The notes under the pieces were generated by a model that did no database searches, was not told where the DNA came from, and saw only the letters and a program-made list of their open reading frames with translations. A program made the translations under genes and the position numbers. A stretch of 64,000 nucleotides of DNA, taken from positions 2,283,228-2,347,227 of the forward strand of contig CAWEIJ010000002.1 of the NCBI GenBank assembly GCA_963809215.1. Reading direction: 5' to 3'. This document shows positions 5,902 to 64,000 of this stretch, piece by piece (within the stretch, counting starts at the first letter, position 1; every line of letters starts with the position of its first letter). The stretch is from an uncultured Chloroflexia bacterium (GTDB lineage Bacteria > Chloroflexota > Limnocylindria > Limnocylindrales > CSP1-4).

Positions 5902-8179
5902 TCAGCCCGACGGCGGCGGCAGCTCCCCGGCGAGGTGCAGCTTCAGCCAGCCGAGGATCCGGCCGAAGGCGTCGCGGCGGTTCTCGCGCCGCTCCCAGCC
6001 GTGCGCCTCGTCGGCGTACCAGTGCACCTCGTGGTACTTGCCCTCGATCTCGAGCGCCTCGACCATCTTCTCGGTCATGAGCGGGACGACCCGGCGATCC
6101 TTCCGCCCATGGAGCAGGAGGAGTGGCGCCTCGATGCGCTCGGCGCGATAGAGCGGCGAGCCACGCCGGTAGAGCTCGGCCTTCTCGGGATCGTCCGGCG
6201 TCCCCATCATTCGCTCCAGGTCGATGCGGCCGACCCGGTCGCCGTGTCGATAGCTCTCCGCGATCTCGGAATCACCGAAGAGGTCGACGCCCGCAGCCCA
6301 CATGGACGGCTCCTCCACGAGCGCGCAGAGCGTCAGGTAGCCACCGTACGACCCGCCGTACATGGCGAGCTTGCCGTTCGACCAGGGCTGGGCGCTGGCC
6401 CAGCGCGCCGCGTCGATGACGTCATGGACGTCGGCGTGGCCCCATTCGTCCGCGGTTCGCGTGGCGGAATTCGCGCCCGTACCCGGTGGAGCCGCGGAAG
6501 TCGACGGACAGGTACGCGAAGCCTTCCTGGACCAGCAGCTCGCGGAACGGGACCCACTCCCGGAACGCCTGCCACGTCGGCCCACCGTGAACATGGACCA
6601 CCGTCGGAACCGTGATCCCGCCCCGCCGCCCCGTTGCGGCCGCAGGCCGCCAGAGCGTGACGGGGACCTGGAGCCCGTCGCGCGCCCGGATTCGGCGATG
6701 CTCCGCCTCGACGAAGCCACGCTGCGGAAGCGCGGCCGGGCGACTCTGGGTCAGGCGCCGGGGACGCCGAGCGATGATCCCGTCCGGGCCGGGGGCCGGC
6801 AGGATCCAGAGGTCCTCCGGCTCGCGGGTCGACTCGCCGATCGCGAGGATTCCGCTGCCGTCGGGAAGCCAGTCGACCGCCAGCCAGACCCCGTCGAACG
6901 GGTCGATGCGGACCGGGGCGCCGGCGCCGGGCGGGAGGGCGGCGACCGGATGCTTCGGCGGTCGGCCCGGTCTCCGCTTCACCGGGACCGCGGCCGCAAT
7001 CGGAGCCACGTGGAGCTCCTGGAGCCCGTCGCGGATGACCGCGTGGACGAACCGGGTCCCGTCCGGTGACGGGATCGGGGCGATCCCGAAGATCGCGCCC
7101 GGGGCGCCATGCTCGACGGCGCCCGAGGTGAGGGCGATCCGGCCCGTGCCGTCCGCGTTGATGCGCGCGACCTGGAACCAGCCGTCCGCGTCGCCGACGA
7201 AGAGGAGTCCGCTCCCATCCGGGAGCCATCGTGCCCCTGTCGCCCACTCGGCGGCCCCGGCGATGGTCCGTTCCTCGCCCGATGCGAGATCGAGGATCGT
7301 GACCTGGTTCGTGAGGAGGTCCGGCTGGCGCTGCGCGGTGATCGCCAGGCAGCTCCCGTCGGGCGACCAGGCGATGGCGTCCACGTCCACCCCGATGGGC
7401 GTGATCGCGCGCGCGTCGGGCGCGACCGGGCGCGTAGCCGGCCGGCCCCGGTGCGGGAGGTTCGCGTCCTGGATCCAGACCTGGCTCCATCCGCGACGGC
7501 GCGAGATGAAGGCGATCCGGCGCCCATCGGGCGCCCAGCGTGGCGCCCGGCTGCCCGCCGGGTGATCCGTCACGACGGCCGGCCGGCTGCCGTTCGCGCC
7601 GATCACCCAGACCGTGTCGTCCCGCACGTAGGCAAGGTGCGCGCCGTCGGGCGCCCACTGGGGATCCGAGACGGCCTTCTCCGATGCCGTGAGCTGGCGG
7701 GTCGCGCCGTTCCGCAGGTCGAGGATGAAGACCTGCCGCGCCCCGCCCGCCTCCGCCGTGTACGCCACGCGCCGCCCATCGGGTGACAGCCGCGGCTCGC
7801 GCGGCGAGTCGCTGGCCACGATCTGCTCGATCGTCAGTCGGTCGCGACGCGGGGCGGGCGCGGGCACCGATCCCGACCGCCCGGCGGGAGGCTGTCGGGC
7901 GACCCGCCGACGTCGCTGCGCATCGGCGGGACCGGGAGTCGTGGCCGCAGGCGTCGCGTCGGCCCGCGGCCCGGACGCCGGGAGAACCGGAGCGGCCGGC
8001 ACGCCATCGGGAGCCGGCTTCGGGCGGTTCTTCGAGCCGGGTGGCCGTCCCCGGCGCCGTTGCGGCGGCGCGATCGTGCCGGTGACCGCTGCCACGATAT
8101 CGATGCCGGCGGCTTCGAGCGCGGTCTCTGCGCTCGGGAGGAGGTCGTCGTCGGAGGGCTCGGAGCGTCCGGGAGGCAT
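5902..8179 (-). pseudogene. S9-family serine peptidase (prolyl oligopeptidase / dipeptidyl aminopeptidase-like) with beta-propeller, one frame break near 6445
   Basis: It has propeller repeats (SPDGRRVAY, APDGAHLAY, APDGRRIAF, SPDGSCLA, LPDGSGLLF), the GGSYGGY nucleophile elbow, and HGRKDRRV / DEAHGW. Frames 6422..8740 and 5902..6720 join as ..GYGREFRHANRG|EWGHADVHDV... The ATG at 8179 (MPPGRSEPSDDD) is in frame. Confidence 0.8.
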
Positions 8180-19256: not shown

Positions 19257-20289
19257 CTAGCCCGGCGACGCGGGCGCGGCGTCCGGCGCGGCCTCGGCCA
19301 CGGCGGCCGCCCCGATCGCGGCCCGGGCGTCCTCCGCGGACTCGCGGCGCCGCGTGGCCGCCTCGTCATGACGCATCCAGGCTGCCGTCATCAGGAGCAG
19401 GGCGACCAGGAATCCGGCGTCGCCGAGGCCCCACATGATCGCTCCGGCAGCCTGCTGGTCCTCGAGGGGCGTCGGGCCCCACAGGCGTCCGGTGGTCGCG
19501 TAGTGCGGGTAGAGGACGGTGCTGGAGAAGAGGATGGCCACGCCGAGGAACGAGTTGAACGGCATCTCCAGGAACATGAAGAGGAGCCGGGCCGGGTGGC
19601 TCATTCGCCAGGGACTGGGATCGCGGCCGACCATCGGCCACCAGAAGAGGATCGAGCTCCCCAGGTAGAGCAGGTGCTCGAGGTCGTGCAGCCATGGGTT
19701 CACGAGGGCGGCGTCGAAGAGGGGGGAGAAGTGCGTTCCCCACATGACCCCGGTGAAGAGGAGCCACGCGACGAGCGGATGCCCGATGATCCGCACGACG
19801 CGCGAGTGGAGGACCGGCAGGATCCACCGCCGCCGGACTTCGGGCGTCGCGACCCGCAGCGCGAGGGTGATCGGGGCGGCCATGCACGATCGCCGGCGCG
19901 GCCAGGAAGATCAGGATCACGTGCTGCACCATGTGGACCGAGAACAGGGTCGTGTCGTAGCGCTCGATGCCCGACTGGAGGGCGACCGCGATCGCCGCCA
20001 GGCCCAGCAGGAAGAACGCCGGCCGATCCCGGGGAACGGGGTTGGCCGGATGGGCGGCGTCGACCCGTCGCACGGCCCACAGGTACGCCGCCGCGGACGC
20101 GGCGAGCGGAATCCAGATCGTCGGGTCGAATGACCAGCCGAGCACGAAGGCGGCGGCGTCGGGCGCGGCCGGTACGACGCCCCCGTGCGCCGAGGCGGCA
20201 GGGGCACCGGCCAGCAGCGCGAGCACGACCGGCGCGGCACCGAGCAGGCGACGCGTGACCGGGTGGTCTCGCCGGCGGCCGGCAGCCAA
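19257..20289 (-). pseudogene. ctaG: cytochrome c oxidase assembly factor CtaG (caa3-type), one frame break near 19884
   Basis: The N-terminal half (..RRLLGAAPVVLALLAGAPAASAHGG..FSVHMVQHVILIFLAAPAIV) is in frame 19366..20541. The C-terminal half (MAAPITLALRVATPEVRRRW..FWWPMVG..) is ORF 19257..19883. The start is uncertain (TTG 20289 or GTG 20307). Confidence 0.75.
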
Positions 20290-20553
20290 TGGTTCCGACG
20301 CCGGCACGCCCGCCGAGGGGGGCGCGTCGGGGTCGGCGGCGATGCGCCCGGCGGCGGTGCGCCTGTCGGCGGTGCGCCCGGCGGCCTGCACCCGTCGGCG
20401 GCCAGGCCGGCCCGGGACGGCCGGCGGGCATCCGACGTCCTGGTCTCGGCGCGAGTCCTGACCCTTCACGGGCGCGATTGTCGCGCGAACCCGGCCCGAT
20501 CGCGACCCTCGGAGGACCAGACGTCCCGGGGGCGGGAACACCTTCCGCGAGGG

Positions 20554-20569: not shown

Positions 20570-20704
20570 CTTTGAAGGCGCTTCGGGTATCATGCCCGCG
20601 CTTTGGGCCACCGCGTCCCGGGAGCCCCGAGCGAGGCGAGGGAGAGGCCACCGGACGCGACCCGATGGAGCGCCTCCGACGCGAGCACGAGGTCGAACGC
20701 ACCC

Positions 20705-21895
20705 ATGGGTCTGACCGGGAAGAGATGGGCTCGCCACGCGGGAATCATCGCGGCCCTCGCGGCGCTGGCGATCCTCCTCTCCGCCTGCACCGACTTCAAC
20801 GTGCGCACCGCCGTTCCCCCTGACGCGGCGTCCGTCCAGGGCCAGGCCACCCGCAACCTCTACGACATCGTCTTCGTCATCGGCGCTGCGATCTTCCTGA
20901 TCGTCGAGGGGCTGATCCTCTTCGCGGTCCTGCGCTACCGCCGCCGGAAGGGCGACGACGAGCTGCCGCCACAGATCCATGGCAACAACCGGCTCGAGAT
21001 CATCTGGACGGCGATCCCGATCGCCCTCGTCCTCGCCCTGTTCGTCCTGTCGTGGCAGACGCTCAACACCGTCGATGCGCACACCCCGACCCCGACCGTC
21101 CGCATCGGCGTCGTCGCCTACCAGTGGCAGTGGCAGTTCGTCTATGCGCCGGACGGCGTGAACTGGGAAGACTGCGGGGCGGCCGCGAACAAGGGCAAGT
21201 GCGTGACGGTGATCGGAACGCTTCCCGCCGGCGGCGACCGCGCGGGCTGGACGCCGCCCACGATGCACGTCCCCGTCAACGAGACCGTCGAGCTCCAGAT
21301 GCACTCGATCGACGTCATCCACTCGTTCTATGTCCCGGCGTTCCTCTACCAGCGCGACATCACGCCGCGCAAGGACCAGGTCATCCAGTTCACGGCCGAC
21401 AGGGTCGGCGTCTACCGCGGCCAGTGCACGCAGTTCTGCGGCCTCTACCACCAGCTCATGCAGTTCCAGGTGCAGGTGGAGCCGCGGGCCGACTACGTGG
21501 CCTGGCTCCAGCAGCAGCTGACCCCGCCCGCCTCGCCCTCGCCCGCTCCCGCTGCCTCGGCCGGCGCCGGCGCCCCGGCCGGCTCGGCGGGTGCGAGCCC
21601 GGCGGCGGGCTCGGTCTCGCTCGCGCTCACGGCGCAGGGCATCGCCTACGACAAGACCGACCTCAGCGCACCCGCCAACACGCCCTTCCAGATCGTCTTC
21701 ACCAACAACGACGCGGGGATCCCCCACAACGTCTCGATCCACACGGGCTCGCCCACCGGGCCGGAGGTCTTCAAGGGCGAGATCTTTGCCGGGACGGACT
21801 CCCGCACCTACGCCGTGCCGGCCCTGCCGGCCGGCACCTACGCCTTCGTCTGCTCGGTCCACCCGAACATGACGGGGACGCTCACCGTCAAGTAG
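20705..21895 (+). CDS. ctaC: cytochrome c oxidase subunit II (CuA) fused to a C-terminal amicyanin/plastocyanin-like type-1 copper domain
   Basis: It runs from MGLTGKRWARHAG (lipobox LLSAC). It has two TM segments and the CuA pattern H-x34-C-x3-C-x3-H-x2-M (IHSFYV...GQCTQFCGLYHQLM). An Ala/Pro/Ser linker follows, and then FQIVFTNNDAGIPHNVSIH...YAFVCSVHPNMTGTLTVK (His, C-x2-H-x2-M). Confidence 0.9.
   Translation: MGLTGKRWARHAGIIAALAALAILLSACTDFNVRTAVPPDAASVQGQATRNLYDIVFVIGAAIFLIVEGLILFAVLRYRRRKGDDELPPQIHGNNRLEIIWTAIPIALVLALFVLSWQTLNTVDAHTPTPTVRIGVVAYQWQWQFVYAPDGVNWEDCGAAANKGKCVTVIGTLPAGGDRAGWTPPTMHVPVNETVELQMHSIDVIHSFYVPAFLYQRDITPRKDQVIQFTADRVGVYRGQCTQFCGLYHQLMQFQVQVEPRADYVAWLQQQLTPPASPSPAPAASAGAGAPAGSAGASPAAGSVSLALTAQGIAYDKTDLSAPANTPFQIVFTNNDAGIPHNVSIHTGSPTGPEVFKGEIFAGTDSRTYAVPALPAGTYAFVCSVHPNMTGTLTVK
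21534..21895 (+). repeat. copy A of a 362-bp perfect direct repeat (linker plus cupredoxin domain plus stop codon)
   Basis: It appears identical by eye to 25243..25604 (constant offset 3709). The translated segments are identical in ORFs 20603..21895 and 24408..25604. Confidence 0.9.
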
Positions 21896-21905
21896 GAGAG
21901 CCCCG

Positions 21906-23543
21906 ATGGCCACCACCGTGCTCCGGCCCGCGGCGACCTACCGCACCGGGCTCTACGAATGGCTGACGACCACCGATCACAAGAAGATCGGGATCCTCTA
22001 CACGTTCAACTCGCTGATCCTCTTCCTGATCGGGGGACTCTTCGCGCTCGCCGTTCGGACCGAGCTGGCCCAGCCGGGGCTCCAGTTCATGGACGAGGCG
22101 ACCTACAACCAGATGTTCACGATGCACGCCTCGGTGATGATCTTCTGGGTCGTCATCCCGTTCCTGGCGGGCTTCGGCAACTACCTGGTCCCGCTCATGA
22201 TCGGCGCGCCGGACATGGCGTTCCCCCGGATCAACGCCCTCTCGTTCTGGCTCCTGCCGCTCTCGGCCCTGATCGCGCTCATGGGCTTCCCGCTCGGCGG
22301 GGCGGCCGCGGAGGGATGGACCAGCTACAGCCCGCTGGCGCAGTCGGCCTTCTCGAAGGGTCCCGGGACCGACCTCTGGATCGTGGCCCTGATCCTGGTG
22401 GGCACGAGCTCCATCCTGGGCGCGGTCAACTTCCTGGTCACGATCTTCAAGATGCGTGCGCCGGGAATGACGCTCTTCCGGATGCCCGTCTTCGTGTGGA
22501 CGATCATGGTCACGAGCGTCCTTGTGCTCATGGGCACGCCGGTGCTGACGAGCGCCCTGATCATGCTCTACATCGACCGCAACTTCGGCGGGAGCTTCTT
22601 CAACACGGCGCTCGCGGGCGGCAACGCGATCCTCTGGGAGAACGTCTTCTGGTTCTACAGCCACCCCGCGGTCTACATCATGATCCTGCCGGCGATGGGG
22701 ATCGTCTCCGAGGTCCTGCCCACCTTCAGCCGCAAGCCGCTCTTCGGCTACAAGGCGTTCGTGTTCGCGACCGCCGGAATCGGCGCCCTCGGCTTCTCCG
22801 TGTGGGCCCACCACATGTTCACCACGGGTTCGGTCTACCTGCCGTTCTTCAGCCTGATGACGTTCCTGATCGCCGTCCCGACCGGCGTCAAGATGTTCAA
22901 CTGGATCGCCACCCTCTACCGCGGCAAGCTCCGCTTCACGACGGCGATGCTCTTCGCGGTGGGCTTCCTGTCGCTCTTCCTCATCGGCGGGATCAACGGC
23001 GCCTTCCTCGCCGCGGTGCCCGTGGACTACCACGTCCACGCGACCTACTTCATCGTGGCCCACATCCACTACGTGCTCTTCGGCGGCTCGATCATGGGCG
23101 TCTTCGCCGGCCTCTACTACTGGTGGCCGAAGATGTTCGGACGGAAGCTGAACGAGGGCCTCGGCAAGGTCCACTTCGTCGGGATCTTCATCGGGATGAA
23201 CCTGACGTTCTTCCCGATGCACCTGCTCGGCCTGTCGGGGATGCCGCGCCGCATCGCCGACTACAGCCCGACGGCCGGCTGGAACGACCTGAACCTCCTC
23301 GCGACGATCGGCGGCTTCACGATCGCCGCCGCGATGCTGCCGTTCCTGTGGAACATCCTCGTGACGTTCCGCGGCGGAGAGCCGGCGGGTGACGATCCGT
23401 GGGAGGCGAACACGCTCGAGTGGGCGACCTCGTCGCCGCCACCGCCATACAACTTCGACCACCTGCCGCCGATCCGCTCCGAGCGACCCGTCTTCGACCA
23501 GCGCCACGCGGCCGATCCGCCGGCAGTCGCGGCAGGGCACTGA
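21906..23543 (+). CDS. ctaD: cytochrome c oxidase subunit I
   Basis: ORF 21906..23543: ..WLTTTDHKKIGILY..FWFYSHPAVYIMILPAMG..VWAHHMFT..HYVLFGG... Confidence 0.95.
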   Translation: MATTVLRPAATYRTGLYEWLTTTDHKKIGILYTFNSLILFLIGGLFALAVRTELAQPGLQFMDEATYNQMFTMHASVMIFWVVIPFLAGFGNYLVPLMIGAPDMAFPRINALSFWLLPLSALIALMGFPLGGAAAEGWTSYSPLAQSAFSKGPGTDLWIVALILVGTSSILGAVNFLVTIFKMRAPGMTLFRMPVFVWTIMVTSVLVLMGTPVLTSALIMLYIDRNFGGSFFNTALAGGNAILWENVFWFYSHPAVYIMILPAMGIVSEVLPTFSRKPLFGYKAFVFATAGIGALGFSVWAHHMFTTGSVYLPFFSLMTFLIAVPTGVKMFNWIATLYRGKLRFTTAMLFAVGFLSLFLIGGINGAFLAAVPVDYHVHATYFIVAHIHYVLFGGSIMGVFAGLYYWWPKMFGRKLNEGLGKVHFVGIFIGMNLTFFPMHLLGLSGMPRRIADYSPTAGWNDLNLLATIGGFTIAAAMLPFLWNILVTFRGGEPAGDDPWEANTLEWATSSPPPPYNFDHLPPIRSERPVFDQRHAADPPAVAAGH

Positions 23544-24407: not shown

Positions 24408-25604
24408 ATGTCGCCCTGGAGCTCGTTCCTGGACTTCGTCAACAAGCTCGTCTCGCCCGACTGGGGCGCGCTCGTCGCGCTGGTCCCGCTCGCGCTCGCC
24501 GTTCTCGTCGTCGGCTACCTGGGCTGGGTCGCGCGCCGCGCCCTCACCGCGCCGCCGACGCGGACCCGTCCGCTCCCGACCGCGCCGATGCCGCCCAACG
24601 TCCACATGCCGGGACCGAGCCTCGCCCCGTTCCTGGCGGCTACCGGGTTCGCCTGCTTCTTCCTGGCGCTTCTCTTCGTCCACGTCGGCCCTCGCCTGGA
24701 CCCGGCGAGCAGGCAGCCGATCGCGGACTCGACGAGCTGGACGATCGCGCCGTTCGGCCTCCTCGCGATCGCGATCGGGCTGGTGGCGCTGGTCTCGGGC
24801 CTGCTCTACTGGGGGCGCGAGTCGAGCCGGGAGTACGACGCCCTGGCCGGATCGCTCACCCTCCCCGCGGTCCGCGAGGCACCGCCGCCGGGCGTCCACG
24901 TCCCGGGCCCCAGCTTCCGCCCGTTCGTGCTCGCGGTCGGAATGGCGGTGATGGTGCTCGGCGGCGTGCTGAACGTCACGATCTTCCTCGGCGGTCTCCT
25001 CATGCTGGTCATCGCGCTCCTCGGCTGGCTGCGCGATGCGCGCGCCGAGTACGGCAAGACGGTCCGCGCCGACGCGACGGGGCACCTCGAGAACATCCCC
25101 GCTCCGGGCTACCCGGTGGGAACGCTCCTGCTGTTCGCGGCGATCCTCGCGGGGAGCATCCTCATCGCGGCCGGGATCGTCCCGCCGCGGGACAGCTCCG
25201 CGACCATCTCCGCATCGGCAAAGCCGCCGGCCGCTGCCTCGGCGCCCTCGCCCGCTCCCGCTGCCTCGGCCGGCGCCGGCGCCCCGGCCGGCTCGGCGGG
25301 TGCGAGCCCGGCGGCGGGCTCGGTCTCGCTCGCGCTCACGGCGCAGGGCATCGCCTACGACAAGACCGACCTCAGCGCACCCGCCAACACGCCCTTCCAG
25401 ATCGTCTTCACCAACAACGACGCGGGGATCCCCCACAACGTCTCGATCCACACGGGCTCGCCCACCGGGCCGGAGGTCTTCAAGGGCGAGATCTTTGCCG
25501 GGACGGACTCCCGCACCTACGCCGTGCCGGCCCTGCCGGCCGGCACCTACGCCTTCGTCTGCTCGGTCCACCCGAACATGACGGGGACGCTCACCGTCAA
25601 GTAG
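24408..25604 (+). CDS. membrane protein with two CoxIV-like modules (H-x-PGPS-x-x-PF + 2 TM + EY) fused to a C-terminal type-1 copper (cupredoxin) domain
   Basis: ORF 24408..25604. Module 1 is PPNVHMPGPSLAPFLAATGF...YWGRESSREYDAL. Module 2 is PPGVHVPGPSFRPFVLAVGM...WLRDARAEYGKT. The last 119 aa are identical to the ctaC C-terminus. Confidence 0.75.
   Translation: MSPWSSFLDFVNKLVSPDWGALVALVPLALAVLVVGYLGWVARRALTAPPTRTRPLPTAPMPPNVHMPGPSLAPFLAATGFACFFLALLFVHVGPRLDPASRQPIADSTSWTIAPFGLLAIAIGLVALVSGLLYWGRESSREYDALAGSLTLPAVREAPPPGVHVPGPSFRPFVLAVGMAVMVLGGVLNVTIFLGGLLMLVIALLGWLRDARAEYGKTVRADATGHLENIPAPGYPVGTLLLFAAILAGSILIAAGIVPPRDSSATISASAKPPAAASAPSPAPAASAGAGAPAGSAGASPAAGSVSLALTAQGIAYDKTDLSAPANTPFQIVFTNNDAGIPHNVSIHTGSPTGPEVFKGEIFAGTDSRTYAVPALPAGTYAFVCSVHPNMTGTLTVK
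25243..25604 (+). repeat. copy B of the 362-bp perfect direct repeat
   Basis: See copy A. It is followed by a 15-nt imperfect echo of the junction (GTCAAGTAGCCGCAC / GTCAAGCAGCCGCAC at about 25590..25630). Confidence 0.9.
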
Positions 25605-25695: not shown

Positions 25696-26271
25696 ATGAT
25701 CTCGCACCGTCCATCCAGCGCCCGTCAGCGCGGCGCCCGGCTCGTCGTCCTGGCCACGATCGTCGTCGTGCTCGGCGGGTGCGCGACCGGCGGCGTGGCG
25801 ATCACGCCGCCTGGATCGCCGGGCGCCTCGGTGATCCAGATCGGCTCGCCGCTCATTGGCAAGGCCGCCCCGGCGCTCGTCGGCACGACGCTCGACGGGA
25901 CGCCGTTCGACCTCGCCTCGCTGCGCGGGTCGCCCGTCCTCGTCAACTTCTGGGCCTCGTGGTGCGGGCCATGCCGGGACGAGTTCCCGCTCCTCGCGGC
26001 CGCGGAGAAGCGCCACGCGGCGCAGGGCCTCAAGGTGATCGGGGTCCTCTTCAAGGACGATGCCGCCCCGGCGCGCGTCTTCGTGGCCCAGGAGAAGGCC
26101 GACTGGCCGACGGTCACGGACCCGTCCCGGACGATCGCCCAGCCGTGGGCCGTCCTCGCCCCGCCCCAGACCTACTTCATCGACCGCGCCGGGATCGTCC
26201 GGGACCTCCAGATCGGGCAGGTCCGTGACGCCGCTGAGCTCGACGCGATCCTCGCCGCGATCCTGACGTGA
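25696..26271 (+). CDS. TlpA/ResA-like thiol:disulfide oxidoreductase lipoprotein
   Basis: ORF 25696..26271 has a lipobox VLGGC, the redox motif FWASWCGPC, and a thioredoxin fold signature ..PQTYFIDRAG... Confidence 0.85.
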   Translation: MISHRPSSARQRGARLVVLATIVVVLGGCATGGVAITPPGSPGASVIQIGSPLIGKAAPALVGTTLDGTPFDLASLRGSPVLVNFWASWCGPCRDEFPLLAAAEKRHAAQGLKVIGVLFKDDAAPARVFVAQEKADWPTVTDPSRTIAQPWAVLAPPQTYFIDRAGIVRDLQIGQVRDAAELDAILAAILT

Positions 26272-30103: not shown

Positions 30104-30529
30104 ATGCCAACGACCGGCTCGCCCGACGACCTCCTGTCCGCCGCGATCGGCGTGCGCGAGCGGTCCTACTCGCCGTACTCCGGGTACGCCGTCGGCGCGG
30201 CGCTTCGCGATGAGCTCGGCCGGATCCACGCGGCGACGAACGTCGAGAACGCGGCCTACCCGCAGGGCCAGTGCGCCGAGGCGTCCGCGATCGGGGCCCT
30301 CGTCGCCGCCGGCGGGAGGCGGATCACCGAGGCGCTCGTGGTGGCCGACCCGGCCGCTGGGCTCCCGACCCCGTGCGGCGGCTGCCGGCAGCGGCTTCGC
30401 GAGTTCATGGCCCTCGACGCGCCGATCCACCTGGCCGGACCCGGCGGTGTGTTGCGAACCGTCACGCTCGGCGAGCTGCTCCCCCTGAGCTTCGGGCCGG
30501 AGTTCCTGCTCGGGAGGAGCGCCCGATGA
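30104..30529 (+). CDS. cdd: cytidine deaminase
   Basis: It runs from MPTTGSPDDLLSAAIGVRERSYSPYSGYAVGAAL in frame 29759..30529. Zinc ligands: ..CAEASAIG.. and ..PCGGCRQ... Confidence 0.85.
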   Translation: MPTTGSPDDLLSAAIGVRERSYSPYSGYAVGAALRDELGRIHAATNVENAAYPQGQCAEASAIGALVAAGGRRITEALVVADPAAGLPTPCGGCRQRLREFMALDAPIHLAGPGGVLRTVTLGELLPLSFGPEFLLGRSAR

Positions 30530-31393
30530 CCCTTCCGGGCTCGGACGCGTCGGGTTCGCTCGGGGATCCGCGCACGGCGGCGGCCCTGATCCGGGCGCGT
30601 GCCGGCGGCCGCACTCCGCGCCTCGGGATCGTGCTGGGGTCCGGTCTCGGCGGCCTCGCCGACCTCCTCGAGGACGCCGCGGCGATCCCGTACGCCGAGA
30701 TCCCCGGTTTCCCGACATCGACCGTCGCCGGCCATGCGGGACGCTTCGTGGTGGGCGAGCTCGACGGCGTGACGGTCGCCTGCATGCAGGGTCGCTTCCA
30801 CCTGTACGAGGGCCATCCCCCGGCGCTTATCCGGCTGCCGATCCGGACCTTCGCGGCGCTCGGCGTGGAGGCGCTCCTCCTGACGAACGCGGCGGGGTCG
30901 CTCCGCGCCGAGGCCGCGCCGGGCAGCCTCATGCTCATCACGGACCACCTCAACTTCATGTGGACGAACCCACTGGTCGGGCCGAACGACGACGCCTGGG
31001 GCGAGCGCTTCGTGGGGCTCGAGGACGCCTACGACCCGGCGCTGCGCACGCGGCTGCGGGCGCTCGCCGACGGCCTGGGCATCCGGCTCCACGAGGGCGT
31101 CTACTGCGGGCTCCTCGGACCCGCTCTTCGAGACGCCGGCGGAGATCCGCGCCTACCGGACCCTGGGGGCCGACGCGGTCGGCATGTCGACCGTTCCGGA
31201 GGTGATCGTCGCGCGCCACGCAGGTCTGCGGGTTGCGGCGATCAGCGCGATCACGAACCTCGCGGTCGGGATGAGCGACGTGCCGATCGACCATGAGCAG
31301 ACGCTCCGCGGCGCGGCGATCGCGGCCGCGGACCTGACGCGGCTCGTCCGGGCGTTCGTCGGCTCGTTCGCCGGGCAGGGATCGGACGGGTAG
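30526..31393 (+). pseudogene. punA: purine nucleoside phosphorylase (trimeric PNP-I type), one frame break near 31124
   Basis: The ATG at 30526 overlaps the cdd stop (ATGA). ..[45 protein letters not shown].. is in frame 30271. ..[33 protein letters not shown].. continues in the ORF 31184..31393 frame. Confidence 0.85.
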
Positions 31394-57159: not shown

Positions 57160-57621
57160 GTGACCGACTTCTACGACATCGACCGTGCGAACGCCCGCCT
57201 CCCCGAGGTCCGCTCGGTGCTGGAGCAGCTCCGGTCCGAGCGCCGCGAGCTGGTCGAGCTGCGCGACCGGCTCATCGTGGCGCGCCGACGGGCAGGGGTG
57301 CCGGGCGACGGGCGGACGCTCGTGGACGAGGCGCTGGGCGAGGCAGCCGACGGCATGCGCCAATCGGCGACCTCCGACTCGCCCCGCGTCCTCGATGCGC
57401 GCATCCGGGCCGTGATCGACCAGATGCAGGCGGCCGTCGCTCGCCTGGACGAGTGGAGCGTGCAGCTCCGCGACATCGAGGATGGCCTCGCGGACTTCCC
57501 GGCGCTCGTGAACGGTCGCCAGGTCTGGCTGTGCTGGCAGCTCGGCGAGGACGAGATCCACTTCTGGCACGACCTCACCTCGGGCTTCGGCGGAAGGCGA
57601 CCGCTCATCGAGCTCACGTGA
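57160..57621 (+). CDS. DUF2203-family protein
   Basis: It runs from the GTG at 57160 (VTDFYDIDRANARLPEVRSVLEQLR...FPALVNGRQVWLCWQLGEDEIHFWHD) in ORF 57097..57621. A TATGAT box lies 8 nt upstream. Confidence 0.6.
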   Translation: MTDFYDIDRANARLPEVRSVLEQLRSERRELVELRDRLIVARRRAGVPGDGRTLVDEALGEAADGMRQSATSDSPRVLDARIRAVIDQMQAAVARLDEWSVQLRDIEDGLADFPALVNGRQVWLCWQLGEDEIHFWHDLTSGFGGRRPLIELT

Positions 57622-57673
57622 CCGGCGGACCCGCCGGGCGGCCGGGGATCGCGGCGGAGCCCGGGACCGCCGA

Positions 57674-57730
57674 CCCGAGCGCAGCCGCCGTCCCGAGCGC
57701 AGCCGCCGTCCCGAGCGCAGCCGCCGTCCC
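57674..57730. repeat. 18-nt perfect tandem repeat CCCGAGCGCAGCCGCCGT x3 (encodes PSAAAV x3 in the 57618 frame)
   Basis: Direct reading. Confidence 0.8.
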
Positions 57731-58062
57731 GTCCGGTCGCGTCATGGAGCGGGGCCGCTCGAAGGCGCATCGGCCGCTGCCGAGCGAGGCACGCCGCGCG
57801 GCCGTGGCCCGGGGGCTCGCCGCCTACGACCGCGGCGCGTGGTACCTCGCCCACGAGGAGCTGGAGCCTGCCTGGATGGGGACGGACGACCTGGCCGAGC
57901 GGGCGCTCCTGAGCGGCCTGATCAAGGTCGCGGCGGCGTACGTCCACGCGGCGCGCGGCAACCCGCTCGGCGTCAGGACGAACCTTCGCGGCGCGCGTGA
58001 GCGCCTCGCCTCGGCCGCGGCCGCAGCGGCCGGGCACGCGACCGGACCGAGCCGCGGGACGG

Positions 58063-58129
58063 GTGCGATGCCCGGGTCGACCATCAGTGCGACGCCCGGG
58101 TCGACCATCGGTGCGACGCCCGGGTTGCC
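58063..58129. repeat. 24-nt tandem repeat GTGCGA(T/C)GCCCGGGTCGACCATC(A/G), about 2.8 copies (encodes MPGSTISATPGSTIGATPG)
   Basis: Direct reading. Confidence 0.75.
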
Positions 58130-58346
58130 CGCGGTCGCCCGCTCGATCGACCTGCCGGCTCTGCTCTCCGCGGTGGACGACCGGCTCGTCGCGCGTCGAG
58201 GCGCTGTGCGACTCGCCGCTGCCGGCGACGACCGGCCGCGATGCCGAGGCGGCGCCGCCGCCTCACGACGTCGCCGGTCCGGCGGGCCGCTTCCGCGGGG
58301 CGCCGGTCGCAATCCCCGCGATCCCGCTGCCAAGGCGTGCGATCTG

Positions 58347-58733
58347 ATGCCGTCCGACGCCACGCTTCCCACGATCAGCCCCGCCGACGCCGACGCGGCC
58401 CGCGCGGAACGTGCCGGCGCGCCGGCCGCGGGACCGGTGCCGATCCTCGTCGACGTCCGGGAACGCCACGAGTACGTCGCGGTGCGCGTCCCGGGCGCGA
58501 TCCTCTACCCGACCTCCACGTTCCTGCAGCGCTACGCGGAGCTCCCCCGGGATCGCCCGGTCCACGTGATCTGCCACACCGGCAACCGCTCCGCGGCCGT
58601 CACCGCGTTCCTTCTCCGCAACGGCTGGGCGGACGTGTCCAACGTTGCCGGCGGGATGGACGCCTGGGAGCGGGCCGGGCTCGAGGTCCGGCGTGGACCG
58701 CTCGCCCCCGGCGAAGGTGAAGCGCCCGGCTGA
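58347..58733 (+). CDS. rhodanese-domain sulfurtransferase
   Basis: It runs from MPSDATLPTISPADADAARA in frame 57453..58733. Motifs: ..ILVDVRERHEYVAVRVPGAI.. and the active-site loop VHVICHTGNRSA. Confidence 0.8.
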   Translation: MPSDATLPTISPADADAARAERAGAPAAGPVPILVDVRERHEYVAVRVPGAILYPTSTFLQRYAELPRDRPVHVICHTGNRSAAVTAFLLRNGWADVSNVAGGMDAWERAGLEVRRGPLAPGEGEAPG

Positions 58734-58837: not shown

Positions 58838-60355
58838 CTAGCCGGCGCCCTGTGCGGCCCGGCGCCGCCAATTCCGAAGGTGGTGGAGGAACGCCCGGGT
58901 GCGCTCCTTGTGATTGAACGCGTAGCCGAGGAGCAGGAGCAGCACGAAGTCCCCGGTCGCGACGCCGGCCGCGGCGAGGTAGGAGAGCTGCTGGCCGACG
59001 GGGCCCTGGATGCCCATCGCCGGGACGACGATGTAGAAGAGCCCCAGCTGGAAGAACGGCGCCTGCGGGGCGAGGTTCGCCCGGGCCGTTCCTGTCGTCG
59101 GGCCGGAGCCCGTCTGGCCCCCCACGAGGAAGACGTGGGAACCCGACACGATCGGGGCGGCGTCGCGAAGGCCAAGGTCCGGCGGCAGGTCGCTGGCGGC
59201 GAGGTGCTTCCAGCTGCCGATGTTGCCCGATGTGTCCGGGATCGCCCACACGATCTCGCCGTTGGAGCCCTGGCCTCCGCCGTAGTAGAGGTTCGAGTTC
59301 GCCACCCAGCCGAACGCGCCCTCGTGGGCGGCCGGGAGGTCCTGCTGCGCGGCCGACGCGGCCGTCGGGCTGCCCCACCGGGTGACCTGGCCGAGCGTCG
59401 CCTTGTCGGTCGAGATGTCGCCGCGGAGCACCTGTGCCGTGGGACCCGACGCGTCGTCGCCGCCCCACACGAAGAGGTTCTGGCCGAGGACCGTCGCGGT
59501 CGCGTGCACGCGCGGCGCCGGCTGCGTGGCCCCGGCTGCGTCGAACAACGTCAGCGGGGCATTGGGCGTCCACGCGGTCAGCTTGCCGGTCGTCGCGTTG
59601 ACGGCGGCCTTCCAGACGGTGTCGACGGGTCCCTTGCCGTCCGTGCCACCGATCAGGAAGAGCCCGTCCGCGGCCACGGCCACCGTGGCACCGGCCCGCG
59701 GCGCGGGCAGCTTCAGGTCCGTCGATTCTGTCCAGGCCGTGATCTTGCCGGTCGTCGCGTCAGGCGTGCCGGCGAGGACCGTGTCCGTGGGCTGCCCGCT
59801 CGCGTCGAGGCCGCCGATGATGTAGGCCACGCCGGAGAAGAAGGCGGCCGCGGCCTGGGTGCGCGGTGCGGGCAGCGCCGCGCCCTGGCTCCACGCATCG
59901 AGGTTGCCGTCCGGCCGGATGACCGTCGCGAAGACGCTGGACTGGGCCGCCTTCCCGTCCGTGCCGCCGACGACGAGCGTCTGGAGGCCGGCCGCGACGA
60001 TCGCCGCGTCGGAGCGGGGCGCCGGCAGCGCCAGCTCGGCCGGGTTCGGCTCCCAGGGGAGGACCGTTCCCGCGGGCGCGGGGCACGGCACCGTCTCGTT
60101 CGATGCGGGACAGAAGTTGATCGGCGTGATGTCGAGCGCCGGGTTGAAGACCTTGAGCGCGACGCCGAGGTCGATCGTGTTCTGCACGGTGGCGTAGAGG
60201 GCACGGTCCGGGAGATAGGCCATCAGCATGATGATGAGGACGAACCAGACCGTCGCCTTGACGCCCGCCCAGCCCCAGCCGTTCGCGTCGAGCAGGCCGA
60301 AGAAGGCCCGCCTGCGAACCACCGTTCCCCCCGGACCGAGCGCCTGTTCCGCCAT
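58838..60355 (-). CDS. Kelch-repeat beta-propeller protein with N- and C-terminal transmembrane segments
   Basis: ORF 58838..60355 has an N-terminal TM (VKATVWFVLIIMLMAY). It has six repeats of the type ..LPAPR..A..V......(I/V)GG.DG... (LPAPRSDAAIVAAG..VVGGTDG; LPAPRTQAAAAFF..IIGGLDA; LPAPRAGATVAV..LIGGTDG; QPAPRVHATATV..VWGGDDA ..). C-terminal TMs follow. Confidence 0.7.
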   Translation of the reverse strand: MAEQALGPGGTVVRRRAFFGLLDANGWGWAGVKATVWFVLIIMLMAYLPDRALYATVQNTIDLGVALKVFNPALDITPINFCPASNETVPCPAPAGTVLPWEPNPAELALPAPRSDAAIVAAGLQTLVVGGTDGKAAQSSVFATVIRPDGNLDAWSQGAALPAPRTQAAAAFFSGVAYIIGGLDASGQPTDTVLAGTPDATTGKITAWTESTDLKLPAPRAGATVAVAADGLFLIGGTDGKGPVDTVWKAAVNATTGKLTAWTPNAPLTLFDAAGATQPAPRVHATATVLGQNLFVWGGDDASGPTAQVLRGDISTDKATLGQVTRWGSPTAASAAQQDLPAAHEGAFGWVANSNLYYGGGQGSNGEIVWAIPDTSGNIGSWKHLAASDLPPDLGLRDAAPIVSGSHVFLVGGQTGSGPTTGTARANLAPQAPFFQLGLFYIVVPAMGIQGPVGQQLSYLAAAGVATGDFVLLLLLGYAFNHKERTRAFLHHLRNWRRRAAQGAG

Positions 60356-60407: not shown

Positions 60408-61510
60408 CTACTTGACCGTCAGCGTCCCGGTCATGTTCGGATGGACGACGCAGGTGAAGCCGTACGTGCCGGCGGCGAGCGCCGGGACGTCGTAGGTCTG
60501 GGTGGCCACGCCGGTGATGATGGCGCCCTGCCAGACGATCGGACCGGTGGGCGAGCCCGTGTGGATGGCGACGTCGTGGGGGATGCCCGCGTCGTTGTTG
60601 GTGAACGCGATCTGGAACGGCACGCCGGCGGGCGCGGCCAGGTCGGTCTTGTCGAAGGCGATGTTCGCCGCCGCCAGCTGGATGACCGTCTCCGCGGTGC
60701 CGCCGGACGCGGCCGGGGAGCCGGCCGGGGAGCCGGGGCGCCGCGCTCGCTGGGGCGGCGCTGGCCCCTGGAGCGGCGCTGGCGCCGCGCCGGAGCGGCC
60801 GACGGTGACGCGAACGCATCCTTCCAGCAGGCAGGCACGGGCGTGGCGCCCGCGGGCGGGACATACGTCGGGTCGCGCCAGCCGGAGAGCGTGACCGTCT
60901 TGCCCGTCGCCGGATCCACGCCCTGGAACTGGACCGTGGACGGGGCCGTGATGAACGCGATCAGCTCCTGGAGGTTCCGGTAGTTGAGCGGCCCGGGCGG
61001 GTTGCCCTGGTCCGACCAGATGGGCATCAGCGAGTTGGCGTCACCGCACACGTAGCGGCCACCCACGGTGAGGACGCTCTGCAGGTAGCCCGGCGTGAGG
61101 TGGGTCAGGAGCTTGGCCTGGTCGTTGAGGACCGGCCCGATCCCGCCCTGGCCCTGGGCACCGTGGCAGCGCGCGCAGTTCGCCTCGAAGAGGGCGTAGC
61201 CCTGGGTGACGGCATTGACCTGCTGGACGGCGACCTCGTTCGTGAGCCGGCTCGAGTTCGGCACGCCCGGAACGCCCAGGTCGTAGAAGTAGTAGACGAT
61301 CACGAACAGCGCCACGATCGTGACCGCGAGGAAGGCCACCCATCGCGCGCTGGCACTCTGCGTGACGATCTTCGCGGCACGCTCGGGGGACAGCCCGACC
61401 GTGTGCGCGGTCGGGGGCGCGGTGAACCGCTCCGGCGGCGCGGCGAGCTCGGACGGGACGCGCGGAACGGGCAGGCGCTCCTCCGGCGGCGTGCCGGGCT
61501 CGTCGGTCAT
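60408..61510 (-). pseudogene. membrane-anchored mono-haem cytochrome c fused to a C-terminal type-1 copper (cupredoxin) domain; one frame break in the linker (about 60795)
   Basis: ORF 60431..61510 has the TM WVAFLAVTIVALFVIVYYF, the haem motif CARCHG and ..SLMPIW... The linker switches frame (..FASPSAAPA | AAPAPLQGPAPPQ..PGSPAGSPAASGGTAETVIQL). Then comes the ORF 60408..60623 frame: FQIAFTNNDAGIPHDVAIH...YGFTCVVHPNMTGTLTVK*. Confidence 0.8.
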
Positions 61511-61538
61511 CGAGCGGCTCGGGTCATCGTCATCCGTC

Positions 61539-62207
61539 TCAGATGCAGCCGGTCGAGCTCTTCGACGCGATCAGGCCCGGCTGGCCGAGCGCGACGGGCA
61601 GCGGGCCGAGCGTGAGCTTGCTCGTGTCAAGGGTCAGCTTCCCGTCGGCCCCCACGCTGACGGCGAACCGGTCGAGCGACCGAGGCGCGGGGCCAAGCTC
61701 CTTGACCTTGATCCCCAGGCGGTCGTAGCGCGAGCCGTGGCACGGACACTCGAACCAGTAGCTCTTGATGCAGAAGTTCGGCTTGCAGCCCAGGTGCGTG
61801 CAGCGCTGGTAGAGGGCGCGCACGTTCACGGCGGTCCCGTCGCCGGTCGCGTCGTCGCCCGGCACGAACTCCTGGCGCGTGGTGTCGACGAGCACGATGA
61901 ACGACCGGGCGTCCTGGTAGTACGCCGGGTAGCCGTCGCCGAACGGGATGAGCGCGTTGGCGTTCTTGATGTCGGTGAACGAGCCCAGGGGGACCTTGCC
62001 GCCGAAGCCGCCCGACAGGTTGGGCCACAGGAACCCGAGCGTGCCCGCCGACACCTCCAGGAGCCACAGGCCGACGCTCGCGCCGAGCGACGTCCTGATG
62101 AGCTGGCGCCGCGAGAGGCCTTTCGGCGCCTCCGTCCGCATCGACTTGAGCGCCTCGCCCGTGAGGGCCTGGGGCTTGCTTGCCGGCTCGACGTGGTAGT
62201 TGCTCAT
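61539..62207 (-). CDS. Rieske 2Fe-2S subunit of a cytochrome bc/b6c-type complex
   Basis: ORF 61539..62207 has a Tat-like SRRQLIRTSLGA, a TM, and the cluster motifs CTHLGC and CPCHGS. Confidence 0.9.
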   Translation of the reverse strand: MSNYHVEPASKPQALTGEALKSMRTEAPKGLSRRQLIRTSLGASVGLWLLEVSAGTLGFLWPNLSGGFGGKVPLGSFTDIKNANALIPFGDGYPAYYQDARSFIVLVDTTRQEFVPGDDATGDGTAVNVRALYQRCTHLGCKPNFCIKSYWFECPCHGSRYDRLGIKVKELGPAPRSLDRFAVSVGADGKLTLDTSKLTLGPLPVALGQPGLIASKSSTGCI

Positions 62208-62214
62208 GGGACGC

Positions 62215-62811
62215 TCACAGGCTGAAGTGGAAGCCGTTGACCCAGGGCAGCGAGAACGCGTACCCGGGACCCCGGAAGAAGATGCCCAGGAATGTCAGGA
62301 CCAGGCCGAGCATGCAGAAGAGGGAGAAGAGCACGACCGCGGTCTTCCGGTCCGAGGGCCGGTTGGCCCGGATGTTCTCGCGATCCACGTAGGGGATCAC
62401 GGCCGCCCCGACGAGCACGAAGAGGGGCACGAGCGCGCCGGCGACCGTCGGATGGAAGTAGGCCAGCAGCTCCTGCAGCCCGAGGAAGTACCACGGGGCC
62501 TTGGCGACCTCGGGCGTCACGTTCGGGTTGGCAAGCTCCTCGAGCGGCGCGTTGACGAAGAGGCCCATGAACAGGACGAAGATGCTCATGAAGACGGCCG
62601 CGAGGAACTCGATCGAGAGCAGGTGCGGCCAGGTCATGACCGTGTCGTCCGGCTCCTTCTGGACCCGGACCACGGCATCCTGCTTGACGAGCGCGAGCAG
62701 GCGATAGGGTCGAGCGGACATCGGCACGCGCTGCTTGTCGATCTCCGTCCGCCGGGTCGGATCCACCGGCAGGACCACGCGCCGCTCGGGCGGTGCCTTC
62801 TGGTCGGTCAT
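62215..62811 (-). CDS. cytochrome b C-terminal part / subunit IV (PetD-like)
   Basis: ORF 62215..62811: ..WPHLLSIEFL.. and ..APWYFLGLQELL.. (PEWY-type Qo motif variant), with 3 TM. Confidence 0.85.
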   Translation of the reverse strand: MTDQKAPPERRVVLPVDPTRRTEIDKQRVPMSARPYRLLALVKQDAVVRVQKEPDDTVMTWPHLLSIEFLAAVFMSIFVLFMGLFVNAPLEELANPNVTPEVAKAPWYFLGLQELLAYFHPTVAGALVPLFVLVGAAVIPYVDRENIRANRPSDRKTAVVLFSLFCMLGLVLTFLGIFFRGPGYAFSLPWVNGFHFSL

Positions 62812-62839
62812 CGCCCGTCCCCCGGGACCGCTCGGTCAC

Positions 62840-63568
62840 TCATAGCGGCCCGCTGATGCCCCCGTCTTTCCTGATCCGCCAGAAATGGACCGCGAGGAAG
62901 ACGGCTGCGACCAATGGGAAGACCATGATGTGGAGCACGTAGAAGCGCAGCAGGGTGTTGCCGCTGACCTCCAGTCCCGCCAGCAGGAGCGTCTTCGAGG
63001 GGGTGTTGAAGAGCGGCGCGTAGCCGGCCATGTTGGAGCCGATCGTGATGGCCCAGTACGCGATCTGGTCCCACGGCAGCAGGTAGCCCGTGAAGCTCAG
63101 GAAGAGCGTCAGGAACAGGAGGACGACGCCGACCACCCAGTTGAACTCGCGCGGCGGCTTGTACGCGCCGTGGTAGAAGACCCGCATCATGTGCAGGAAG
63201 ACGAAGAAGACCATCAGGTGGGCGGCCCACCGGTGGATGTTCCGGGTCAGGAGCCCGAACGGCACCTGCGACTGGATCTGCAGGATGTCCGAGTAGGCCT
63301 GCGTCGACGACGGGGCGTAGAAGAACATCAGGTAGACGCCGGTCACCGTCAGGACCAGGAACAGGAAGAACGAGAGCCCGCCCAGGCAGAACGTGTAGGC
63401 GAACTTGACCGCGTGCTGCCGGACCCGCACCGGGTGCAGGTGCAGGAAGACGTTGTTCATCACCGCGTACGCCCGCGACCGCTCGTCGTTGGGGTACGGG
63501 TTCCGGAACAGGGACCGGAAGACGGGGCTCCGCCGGATCGACTGGTCCACCCGCTCCAGGAAGCTCAC
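62840..63568 (-). CDS. cytochrome b6-like (N-terminal four-helix haem-binding part of split cytochrome b)
   Basis: ORF 62840..63568 has its GTG overlapping the upstream stop (GTGA). Haem His pairs: ..RNIHRWAAHLMV.. and ..FYVLHIMVFPLVAAVFLAVHFW... Confidence 0.9.
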   Translation of the reverse strand: MSFLERVDQSIRRSPVFRSLFRNPYPNDERSRAYAVMNNVFLHLHPVRVRQHAVKFAYTFCLGGLSFFLFLVLTVTGVYLMFFYAPSSTQAYSDILQIQSQVPFGLLTRNIHRWAAHLMVFFVFLHMMRVFYHGAYKPPREFNWVVGVVLLFLTLFLSFTGYLLPWDQIAYWAITIGSNMAGYAPLFNTPSKTLLLAGLEVSGNTLLRFYVLHIMVFPLVAAVFLAVHFWRIRKDGGISGPL

Positions 63569-64000
63569 CTGGCCCCTCCTGCGACGCCGGGCGTGCCGGC
63601 AAGCTGCGCGTCACGGTACGACTCCTTGTAGAGCCGGCCGTCGGTCGATACCTCCTGGAGCTCGAACCGCTCCATCGTAATGGCGTCGAATGGGCACCGC
63701 TTGACACAGAGCGCGCAGCGGATGCAGCGCTCCTCGTCGAGGATCATGGCGGCGCCCTGGTCCCAGCCGTAGGCCTCCTCGAGCTCCGGCAGGAACCCCT
63801 CCGACTTCATCTGGTTGACGTCGATCATGTGGATGACGCCCTCCGGGCAGACGTCCGCGCAGGCGCCGCACAGGACGCACCGGAAGGGATCGAACCAGAT
63901 GTTGTAGTTGCACATGAGGCAGCGCGTCGACTCGGCGACGGCCTGGGTCGCGCTGTAGCCGAGCTCCACGCCGGTCGTGAAGTTGACCTCGGGCTCGCGG
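63565..64000 (-). CDS. 4Fe-4S dicluster (ferredoxin-type) domain protein, first visible gene of the bc operon; N-terminus beyond window end
   Basis: The frame of ORF 63565..63969 is open to 64000. Motifs: ..CLMCNYNIWFDPFRCVLCGACADVCPEG.. and ..CIRCALCVKRCPFD... Confidence 0.7.
   Translation of the reverse strand, partial: REPEVNFTTGVELGYSATQAVAESTRCLMCNYNIWFDPFRCVLCGACADVCPEGVIHMIDVNQMKSEGFLPELEEAYGWDQGAAMILDEERCIRCALCVKRCPFDAITMERFELQEVSTDGRLYKESYRDAQLAGTPGVAGGAR

Follow-up and report, generated by a model that had tools for sequence, protein, structure and literature searches.

We report here on a 64,000-nucleotide stretch of DNA from an uncultured Chloroflexia bacterium of the Limnocylindrales (GCA_963809215.1, contig CAWEIJ010000002.1), hereafter the window, whose GC content is ~73%. 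At its end lies an operon for a Rieske/cytochrome b6-type complex whose cytochrome c carries a type-1 (blue) copper domain, a cupredoxin, at its C-terminus, and ~35 kb away lies an operon for an A-family (aa3-type) oxidase in which two further proteins carry cupredoxins of the same family. Sequence comparison leads us to propose, with a probability of about 60%, that this is a respiratory complex of the Limnocylindria lineage which is wired to the oxidase through copper. Textbook respiratory chains connect complexes III and IV either by a diffusible carrier, such as cytochrome c or plastocyanin, or by a haem c built into one complex.

The cytochrome c-cupredoxin gene occupies 60408..61510 on the minus strand (1103 nt) and is frame-broken as given, according to the open reading frames (ORFs) and a three-frame translation. 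Its cytochrome c part (60829..61510, minus strand, frame 1; Pfam Cytochrome_CBB3 and Cytochrom_C) has a cytoplasmic N-terminus, a transmembrane helix and the haem motif CARCH, and extends up to CWKDAF. CARCH (61163-61177) is the single haem motif of the protein and the sole CxxCH among the window's ORFs rich in GC at third codon positions (GC3), and a distal Met (NSLMP) and a Cys pair are conserved, the Met being invariant in alignment A2. The membrane-anchored mono-haem cytochrome c of the first-pass annotation was thus confirmed by translation and Pfam, and the N-terminal anchor presumably places its haem domain outside. A linker rich in Ala, Ser, Pro and Gly (60702..60828, minus strand; in relatives A 30%, S 23%, P 18%, G 18%) leads to the cupredoxin domain (60411..60701, minus strand, frame 3; Pfam Cupredoxin_1 E 1.8e-11 and Copper-bind), which is closed by a stop codon at 60408-60410. 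The predicted copper ligands, the His of GIPHD and the Cys, His and Met of CVVHPNM, are invariant in alignment A2. In PDB sequence searches the domain matched auracyanin A, amicyanin and plastocyanin, and the nearest solved folds by Foldseek were the auracyanins of Roseiflexus and Chloroflexus together with amicyanin (E ~1e-7). In the AlphaFold2 (AF2) model of the closest homologue, P0001, an N-terminal helix (42-78) and a moderately confident haem domain are followed by a disordered linker (predicted local distance difference test, pLDDT, <30) and a confident cupredoxin (pLDDT ~90).

The frame-corrected fusion was used as the query of the homologue search, and more than 100 intact proteins of 344-392 aa were returned, the best of them 88% identical and all with a cytochrome c and a Cupredoxin_1 domain; their source records label them Candidatus Limnocylindrales or Chloroflexota, and the JGI automatic annotation calls such fusions 'plastocyanin/cytochrome c553'. 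A scan of species-representative genomes found at least 345 relatives, all of them metagenome-assembled genomes (MAGs) of Chloroflexota or Limnocylindrales and many belonging to one long-contig series; 80 loci were fetched, the closest with 92.7% identity to the window, and the operon survey by tblastn covered 82 loci. The two domains were in one frame in all 81 loci that hold both, in line with the first-pass claim of a C-terminal cupredoxin of the oxidase family, and the 78 complete ORFs all kept CxxCH and the His/Cys/His/Met ligands, with a loop of the form C-x2-H-x2-M or C-x2-H-x3-M. Only one of the 82 loci (L048) had a further cupredoxin at a distance of up to 10 kb from the bc operon. 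Two other views of the copper domain were rejected. It cannot be an independent full-length gene, because its frame holds no in-frame ATG, GTG or TTG from the upstream stop to the GTG at 60623, which is already inside the domain (none stands upstream of GVPFQ). Nor do we take a copper chaperone as the main reading, because the complete set of type-1 ligands and the auracyanin/amicyanin-like fold are conserved.

On the oxidase side, CoxB (subunit II; 20702..21895, plus strand; Pfam COX2_TM, COX2 and Cupredoxin_1) has a lipobox, two transmembrane helices, a CuA site and a C-terminal cupredoxin, and scored above its NCBIfam cut-off (TIGR02866, 164.3 vs 147.7). Its translation holds the CuA motifs HSFYVP and CTQFCGLYHQLM; it holds no CxxCH, so that there is no cytochrome c on subunit II such as defines a caa3 oxidase. 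CoxA, the haem-copper oxidase subunit I of the A family, follows at 21906..23543 on the plus strand (TIGR02891, 709.6 bits vs a cut-off of 670.75), and an accessory membrane protein of 398 aa with a C-terminal cupredoxin is encoded at 24408..25604 (plus strand; Pfam Cupredoxin_1). In both CoxB and the accessory protein the cupredoxin sits on a linker like that of the cytochrome c fusion. By tblastn, the cupredoxin of the fusion is 70.3% identical (64/91 residues) to the copies at 21620-21892 and 25329-25601, for which roughly two-thirds had been estimated by eye. The homologous tethered cupredoxins that the first-pass annotation had placed at both ends of the chain are therefore real, as paralogues on CoxB and the accessory protein, and they stand on the same contigs in relatives: about 100 fused CoxB homologues (COX2 and Cupredoxin_1) were found, many on contigs equal in length to those with the cytochrome c fusion.

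The oxidase-side copies of the window were set beside three oxidase-side reference loci (L083, L084 and L085). The linker and cupredoxin DNA of the accessory gene (25243-25604) and that of coxB (21534-21895) are 100% identical over 362 nt; in L083 the corresponding pair is 98% identical as protein, and the window and L083 copies visibly differ by eye. Because the oxidase copies are near-identical within each genome and differ between genomes, these sequences indicate that the oxidase pair evolves in concert, by gene conversion. The copy on cytochrome c, 68-70% identical to the oxidase copies, is by sequence a distinct paralogue. The L083 operon, which shares a 93-kb contig with one of the reference loci used for the linker (L002), is the same as that of the window: a divergent CtaG gene, CoxB-cupredoxin, CoxA, CoxC, a 60-aa ORF, a 399-aa cupredoxin protein, a TlpA-like redoxin and an ABC transporter. 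CoxB and the accessory protein are both fused to a cupredoxin in the more distant L085, and in L084 CoxB has none while a 395-aa accessory protein carries one. Because a cupredoxin is always retained on the accessory protein and usually, though not in every case, on CoxB as well, the constant feature is one tethered cupredoxin per partner system (L083, L084 and L085 on the oxidase side; 78/78 cytochrome c fusions).

The membrane part of the accessory protein (24408-25298), which has some six hydrophobic stretches and in which the motif H-x-PGPS recurs, is conserved in the oxidase operon of all relatives inspected; Pfam gave only a sub-threshold similarity to actinobacterial Cyt_c_ox_IV, and a PDB sequence search gave no match to this part. 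Furthermore, in the window as in each of L083-L085, the oxidase operon is followed by a TlpA-like thiol:disulfide redoxin (25696-26271 of the window, plus strand) and an ABC transporter. The redoxin may take part in the maturation of the CuA or cupredoxin copper sites.

Read on the minus strand from 64000 to 60408, the ORF list and Pfam give an Fe-S ORF, a cytochrome b6-like gene, a subunit IV-like gene, a Rieske gene and the cytochrome c gene, spaced by -4, 28, 7 and 28 nt. This is the order that had been noted before; every domain is backed by Pfam, and the Pfam, NCBIfam and PDB searches were concordant on the identity of every subunit. The split cytochrome b was likewise correctly recognized, b6 and subunit IV being separate ORFs. 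Across the 82 loci, and wherever the contig reaches, a flavoprotein gene (of which the Fe-S ORF is the tail, see below), b6, subunit IV and Rieske lie in this order upstream of the fusion, in 62, 71, 79 and 82 loci, respectively, so that the survey of fusions beside split cytochrome b genes that had been suggested earlier finds the arrangement conserved. A scan for promoters and terminators was uninformative in DNA of 73% GC.

The cytochrome b6-like subunit (62840..63568, minus strand; 242 aa, four helices; Pfam Cytochrome_B E 7e-44) has spinach and cyanobacterial cytochrome b6 as its best solved relatives in the PDB sequence search (E 2e-49). Aligned with spinach b6, the protein keeps the four His ligands of haems bL and bH, and its CLGG falls on the YCLGG that contains the Cys binding haem cn/ci. 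The protein scored barely above the NCBIfam cut-off for ExtP (294.4 vs 290 bits), while the model for ExtQ, its partner in the Geobacter ExtP/ExtQ pair, failed (45.4 vs a cut-off of 150) and the gene context is respiratory, with no ext cluster. The automatic name 'ExtP', a b-type cytochrome of a selenite/tellurite reduction operon, is likely a misannotation. The subunit IV-like protein (62215..62811, minus strand; 198 aa; Pfam Cytochrom_B_C), the C-terminal part of the split cytochrome b, aligns to b6f subunit IV (PDB, E 2.4e-5) and has APWY at the position of the b6f Qo motif PEWY (P[E/D]W[Y/F]), with Pro in place of the acidic residue. The Rieske [2Fe-2S] protein (61539..62207, minus strand; 222 aa; Pfam Rieske) starts with a twin-arginine-like signal anchor (SRRQLI), and its cluster boxes, CTHLGC and CPCHGSRY in the alignment to 9rk3, contain the Ser/Tyr pair of the high-potential type. 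Its closest solved chains are Kustd1480 and Kuste4569 of Kuenenia (9rk3 and 9rk4; E 6.5e-16 and 8e-15), against 3e-9 for the b6f Rieske protein.

The first gene of the operon had been described as a small 4Fe-4S dicluster protein, and this could not be upheld. The ORF (63565..64000, minus strand; Pfam Fer4 families) is the C-terminal 144 codons of an NfnB/GltD-like subunit binding NAD(P), flavin adenine dinucleotide (FAD) and Fe-S clusters, which is cut by the window edge: its frame is open to that edge, also upstream of the GTG chosen in the first-pass annotation, and its translation matches positions 468-611 of a 611-aa protein of L001 with 99% identity. The full flavoprotein, 611 aa in both L001 and L002, comprises Fer4_20, Pyr_redox_2 and a C-terminal 2x[4Fe-4S] domain, and its best solved relatives are NfnA (9n5u), 9bov/9bp5, the NfnI large subunits and GltD, with 5t5i also matched. 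It stands directly upstream of b6 in 62 of the 62 loci long enough to show it. The translational coupling proposed earlier is supported, since the stop codon TGA (63565-63567) overlaps the start of b6 (GTGA, 63565-63568) and the same 4-nt overlap occurs in L001. The subunit is a hallmark of anammox-type Rieske/cytochrome b complexes: NAD(P)/FAD/Fe-S subunits are known from such complexes and from subfamily G of cytochrome b as defined by Dibrova et al. (PMC12954380, PMC5600118), and 9bp5 and 5t5i are the homologues named for the Kuenenia NAD(P) oxidoreductase subunit Kuste4570 (PMC12954380). Its earlier description as an additional unusual subunit holds against the textbook complexes, but its kind was already known from anammox.

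In the linker, the frame break proved more complex than the single one claimed before. The 1103 nt of the fusion gene equal 2 mod 3, and codon-level comparison with in-frame relatives (L001-L005) located shifts near 60787-60790 and 60735-60738. Frame 1 is correct as far as ...ASPSAAPA; it is followed by 17 codons (GASAAPGASAAPASAAP) that are homologous to linker codons of the relatives but lie in frame 2, and frame 3 is used from GSPAGSPAASGG on. Because these three segments read in successive frames against the in-frame relatives, the linker contains two +1 shifts. Left uncorrected, the cytochrome c frame yields nonsense rich in arginine as far as 60431. A single-base correction (a lone -1, from frame 1 to 3) would restore the ORF and leave a segment, LQGPAPPQRARR, that is unlike a linker, and two shifts fit better because the homologous DNA of the relatives reads in the third frame between both sites. 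Programmed frameshifting was also rejected: the relatives are all in frame and there is no conserved slippery site.

How the electrons would travel can be outlined from the anatomy of the two complexes. Quinol would be oxidized at Qo, and one electron would pass from the Rieske cluster to haem c and on to the tethered type-1 copper at the outer membrane face. The copper domain of cytochrome c would then swing to the oxidase and reduce CuA either directly or via the oxidase-tethered cupredoxins, so that copper domains fixed to the two enzymes would stand in for a diffusible cytochrome c, in a manner likened to auracyanin and sulfocyanin. At the cytoplasmic face, the NfnB-like subunit would let electrons pass between NAD(P)(H) and the low-potential b/cn chain, a role also put forward for the anammox complexes. 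The route that had been suggested at first, from Rieske via haem c, its cupredoxin and the oxidase cupredoxin to CuA, fits this anatomy and the Ser/Tyr pair of the Rieske box, and we consider it plausible that copper wires the bc complex to the oxidase.

Several points weigh against it. As the sequence stands the fusion is untranslatable and needs two corrections, and that these correct an artefact is deduced from other broken genes of the window. At least three other conserved genes are frame-broken there: the oxidase assembly factor CtaG is split between frames (profile positions 1-67 at 19885-20478 and 68-236 at 19260-19889, minus strand; Pfam), and the syntenic L083 has an unbroken CtaG gene for 309 aa; an S9 prolyl oligopeptidase (5905-7837, minus strand) is split near 6444-6452 (profile 9-36, then 40-211); and a PNP_UDP_1 phosphorylase (30511-31378, plus strand) is split near 31106-31116 (profile 1-149, then 150-232). 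These calls rest on the continuity of Pfam profile coordinates, the GC3 frame plot alone being too noisy. Runs of four C or G bases lie at or beside several of the junctions, and indel errors fit the overall pattern better than simultaneous pseudogenization. The cupredoxin codons differ from those of L001 by 14 synonymous and 9 non-synonymous changes, with no stop and all ligands present. Because several conserved genes are broken and the cupredoxin frame shows no decay, the break in the window is very likely a sequencing or assembly artefact. The opposite view is that the break is real and very recent: the cytochrome c of this strain would have lost its cupredoxin, leaving a protein of 359 aa that ends in nonsense sequence, or a product that is unstable, and the downstream cupredoxin would be an untranslated remnant. 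The sequence as given, out of frame over 1103 nt with two shift sites, speaks for such a truncation, as does the lack of a start codon ahead of the first strand of the cupredoxin, and the two oxidase cupredoxins might make a third dispensable. However, with 81 of 81 relatives in frame and with codon changes that are mainly synonymous, we hold a genuine truncation to be improbable. With the linker included, the window shows about one frame break per 13 kb. In L005, L015, L016, L067, L072 and L073, the flavoprotein, Rieske or subunit IV gene was matched by tblastn over part of its length only, which suggests that frameshifts are common in these assemblies too.

The other points against the copper wire concern the path itself. 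The lineage is known here from MAGs alone; the genome outside the visible 64 kb could encode cytochromes c, soluble or lipid-anchored, or free cupredoxins; a relay from Cu to Cu to CuA has more steps than seem needed; and the copper domains would be no more than accessory if haem c met CuA directly within a supercomplex. The last point leads to an account in which the cupredoxins are not the main wire, electrons passing from haem c directly to CuA or by an unseen soluble carrier while the copper domains serve side routes such as other periplasmic enzymes, regulation or copper handling. Actinobacteria are known to pass electrons directly from haem c to CuA in obligate supercomplexes, the haem domain of the window is weakly similar to QcrC, CoxB lacks a cupredoxin in some relatives, and most of the genome lies outside the window. 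Set against this, a cupredoxin is always found on both partners (78/78 complete fusions; the accessory protein in L083, L084 and L085), the full type-1 ligand set is invariant, unlike in copper chaperones, and the nearest folds, auracyanin and amicyanin, belong to dedicated electron carriers. The earlier statement that no soluble cytochrome c is visible also counts here; it stands for the 64-kb window, where no other CxxCH protein occurs, but reaches no further into the genome. On balance we regard this account as rather unlikely. A different question is whether the complex primarily runs a plain Q cycle. Its main role may instead be linked to NAD(P), quinol oxidation reducing NAD(P)+ under the pull of the high-potential copper/oxidase branch or, in the other direction, NAD(P)H electrons entering the quinone pool at the N side; such a role is compatible with the copper wire, as it concerns the other branch. 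The flavoprotein coupled translationally to b6 and present in all 62 long-enough loci, the Rieske protein closest to those of two Kuenenia complexes of this kind, and the proposal and energetics published for anammox (PMC12954380) point that way. However, the anammox proposal is itself still a proposal, and the organism appears, from its aa3-type oxidase, to be an aerobe, which would have other NAD(P)H sources; we thus find a primary NAD(P)-linked role unlikely. Its boldest form is more doubtful still: Limnocylindria would run an aerobic, copper-wired complex of the anammox type as a bifurcating quinol:NAD(P)+/O2 oxidoreductase of the Q-cycle type. One electron would go through Rieske, haem c and blue copper to the aa3 oxidase and O2, and the energy of this step would lift the other to NAD(P)+, by way of b haems of very low potential and the NfnB-like Fe-S/FAD subunit.

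Among known systems, the closest to the copper-wired complex proposed here are the anammox complexes of Kuenenia (Kuste4569-4574 and Kustd1480-1485; subfamily G). They share with it a four-helix cytochrome b of the b6 kind, a subunit IV encoded apart from it and, in the operon, a large cytoplasmic NAD(P)/FAD/poly-Fe-S subunit (PMC12954380, PMC5600118); the Rieske protein of the window is nearest to Kustd1480 and Kuste4569, and the flavoprotein matches the same 9bp5 and 5t5i. However, the c subunit is a mono-haem cytochrome c-cupredoxin here and a hexa- or octa-haem or hydroxylamine oxidoreductase (HAO)-like protein there, subunit IV looks three-helical and not five-helical, and the host has an aa3-type oxidase, so that its high-potential sink is presumably O2 whereas theirs is nitrite. 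By sequence, the b6/Rieske/flavoprotein core appears to group by descent with the anammox-type complexes, while its c subunit is not of their multi-haem kind. The cytochrome b may belong to subfamily G, for which the Kuenenia-like Rieske protein and the ExtP score speak indirectly.

With the b6f complex and the b6c complex of Firmicutes (QcrABC), the complex shares the split cytochrome b, the CxGG Cys of haem cn, the four conserved His and the Rieske protein. The b6f complex reduces a blue copper protein, plastocyanin. It differs in having cytochrome f, which is missing here, in the Qo motif (PEWY vs APWY) and in its copper protein, soluble there and covalently tethered here. Unlike in QcrC of Bacillus b6c, the cytochrome c is a separate, N-terminally anchored class-I protein that is not fused to subunit IV, and neither b6f nor b6c has the extra flavoprotein subunit. 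In the same phylum, Chloroflexus and Roseiflexus use a membrane-attached type-1 copper protein, auracyanin, between a quinol oxidase, Alternative Complex III (ACIII), and the terminal acceptor. Auracyanins provide the nearest solved folds, with a sequence identity of only ~20-26%; they are separate proteins working with ACIII, whereas here the copper domains are fused to both partner enzymes of a Rieske/cytochrome b chain. In the SoxM supercomplex of Sulfolobus, electrons are handed from the Rieske protein SoxF and cytochrome b SoxG via sulfocyanin (SoxE) to the CuA protein SoxH and SoxM. There too, blue copper takes over from cytochrome c in linking a Rieske/cytochrome b module to a haem-copper oxidase, but the system is archaeal, with sulfocyanin as a subunit of its own and without haem c, and the operon is not homologous; the NCBIfam models for SoxB and SoxC scored far under their cut-offs. 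Finally, caa3 oxidases and actinobacterial bcc-aa3 likewise build the carrier between complexes III and IV covalently into one complex, and the haem domain here is weakly similar to QcrC. In contrast to them, the carrier tethered to the oxidase is copper and not haem, and the c subunit has one haem instead of two.

Downstream of the fusion gene, after 52 nt, a Kelch beta-propeller membrane protein of 505 aa is encoded (58838..60355, minus strand; Pfam Kelch families), and a Kelch protein occupies this position in 77 of the 82 loci. It has hydrophobic segments at the N- and C-terminus and matched no NCBIfam model. The gene may be co-transcribed with the bc operon, and its product may belong to the complex as one more subunit or help to assemble it. 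Next to it, a DUF309 and a rhodanese domain share one stop-free frame (57615-58691, plus strand), where L002 encodes them separately (170 and 128 aa). The two genes may have fused here, a stop codon may have been lost, or the frame may just happen to be open in GC-rich DNA.

The literature that we searched, whose coverage was incomplete, yielded no description of cytochrome c-cupredoxin or CoxB-cupredoxin fusions in Limnocylindria and no published description of a copper-wired path from a bc complex to an oxidase. The fusion arrangement is apparently undescribed, while the principle of a tethered carrier is already familiar. For the annotation of these MAGs there is a practical side, as frame-broken copies and automatic names of the ExtP type will mislead it. 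Limnocylindria are an abundant, essentially uncultured and little-studied lineage of Chloroflexota in soil and freshwater. Though the organisms are uncultured, soluble modules such as the cytochrome c-cupredoxin or the cupredoxin domains could be expressed, which would make the path and its potentials accessible. If the bifurcating aerobic variant were true, the disputed anammox mechanism would become testable in aerobes. The NfnB-like NAD(P) oxidoreductase on a b6-type complex would in any case extend the anammox-type architecture to an aerobe and thus to another physiology, and paralogous blue-copper domains on both partners, conserved in a lineage of class rank that counts at least 345 relatives at species level, would represent a third design for linking complexes III and IV.

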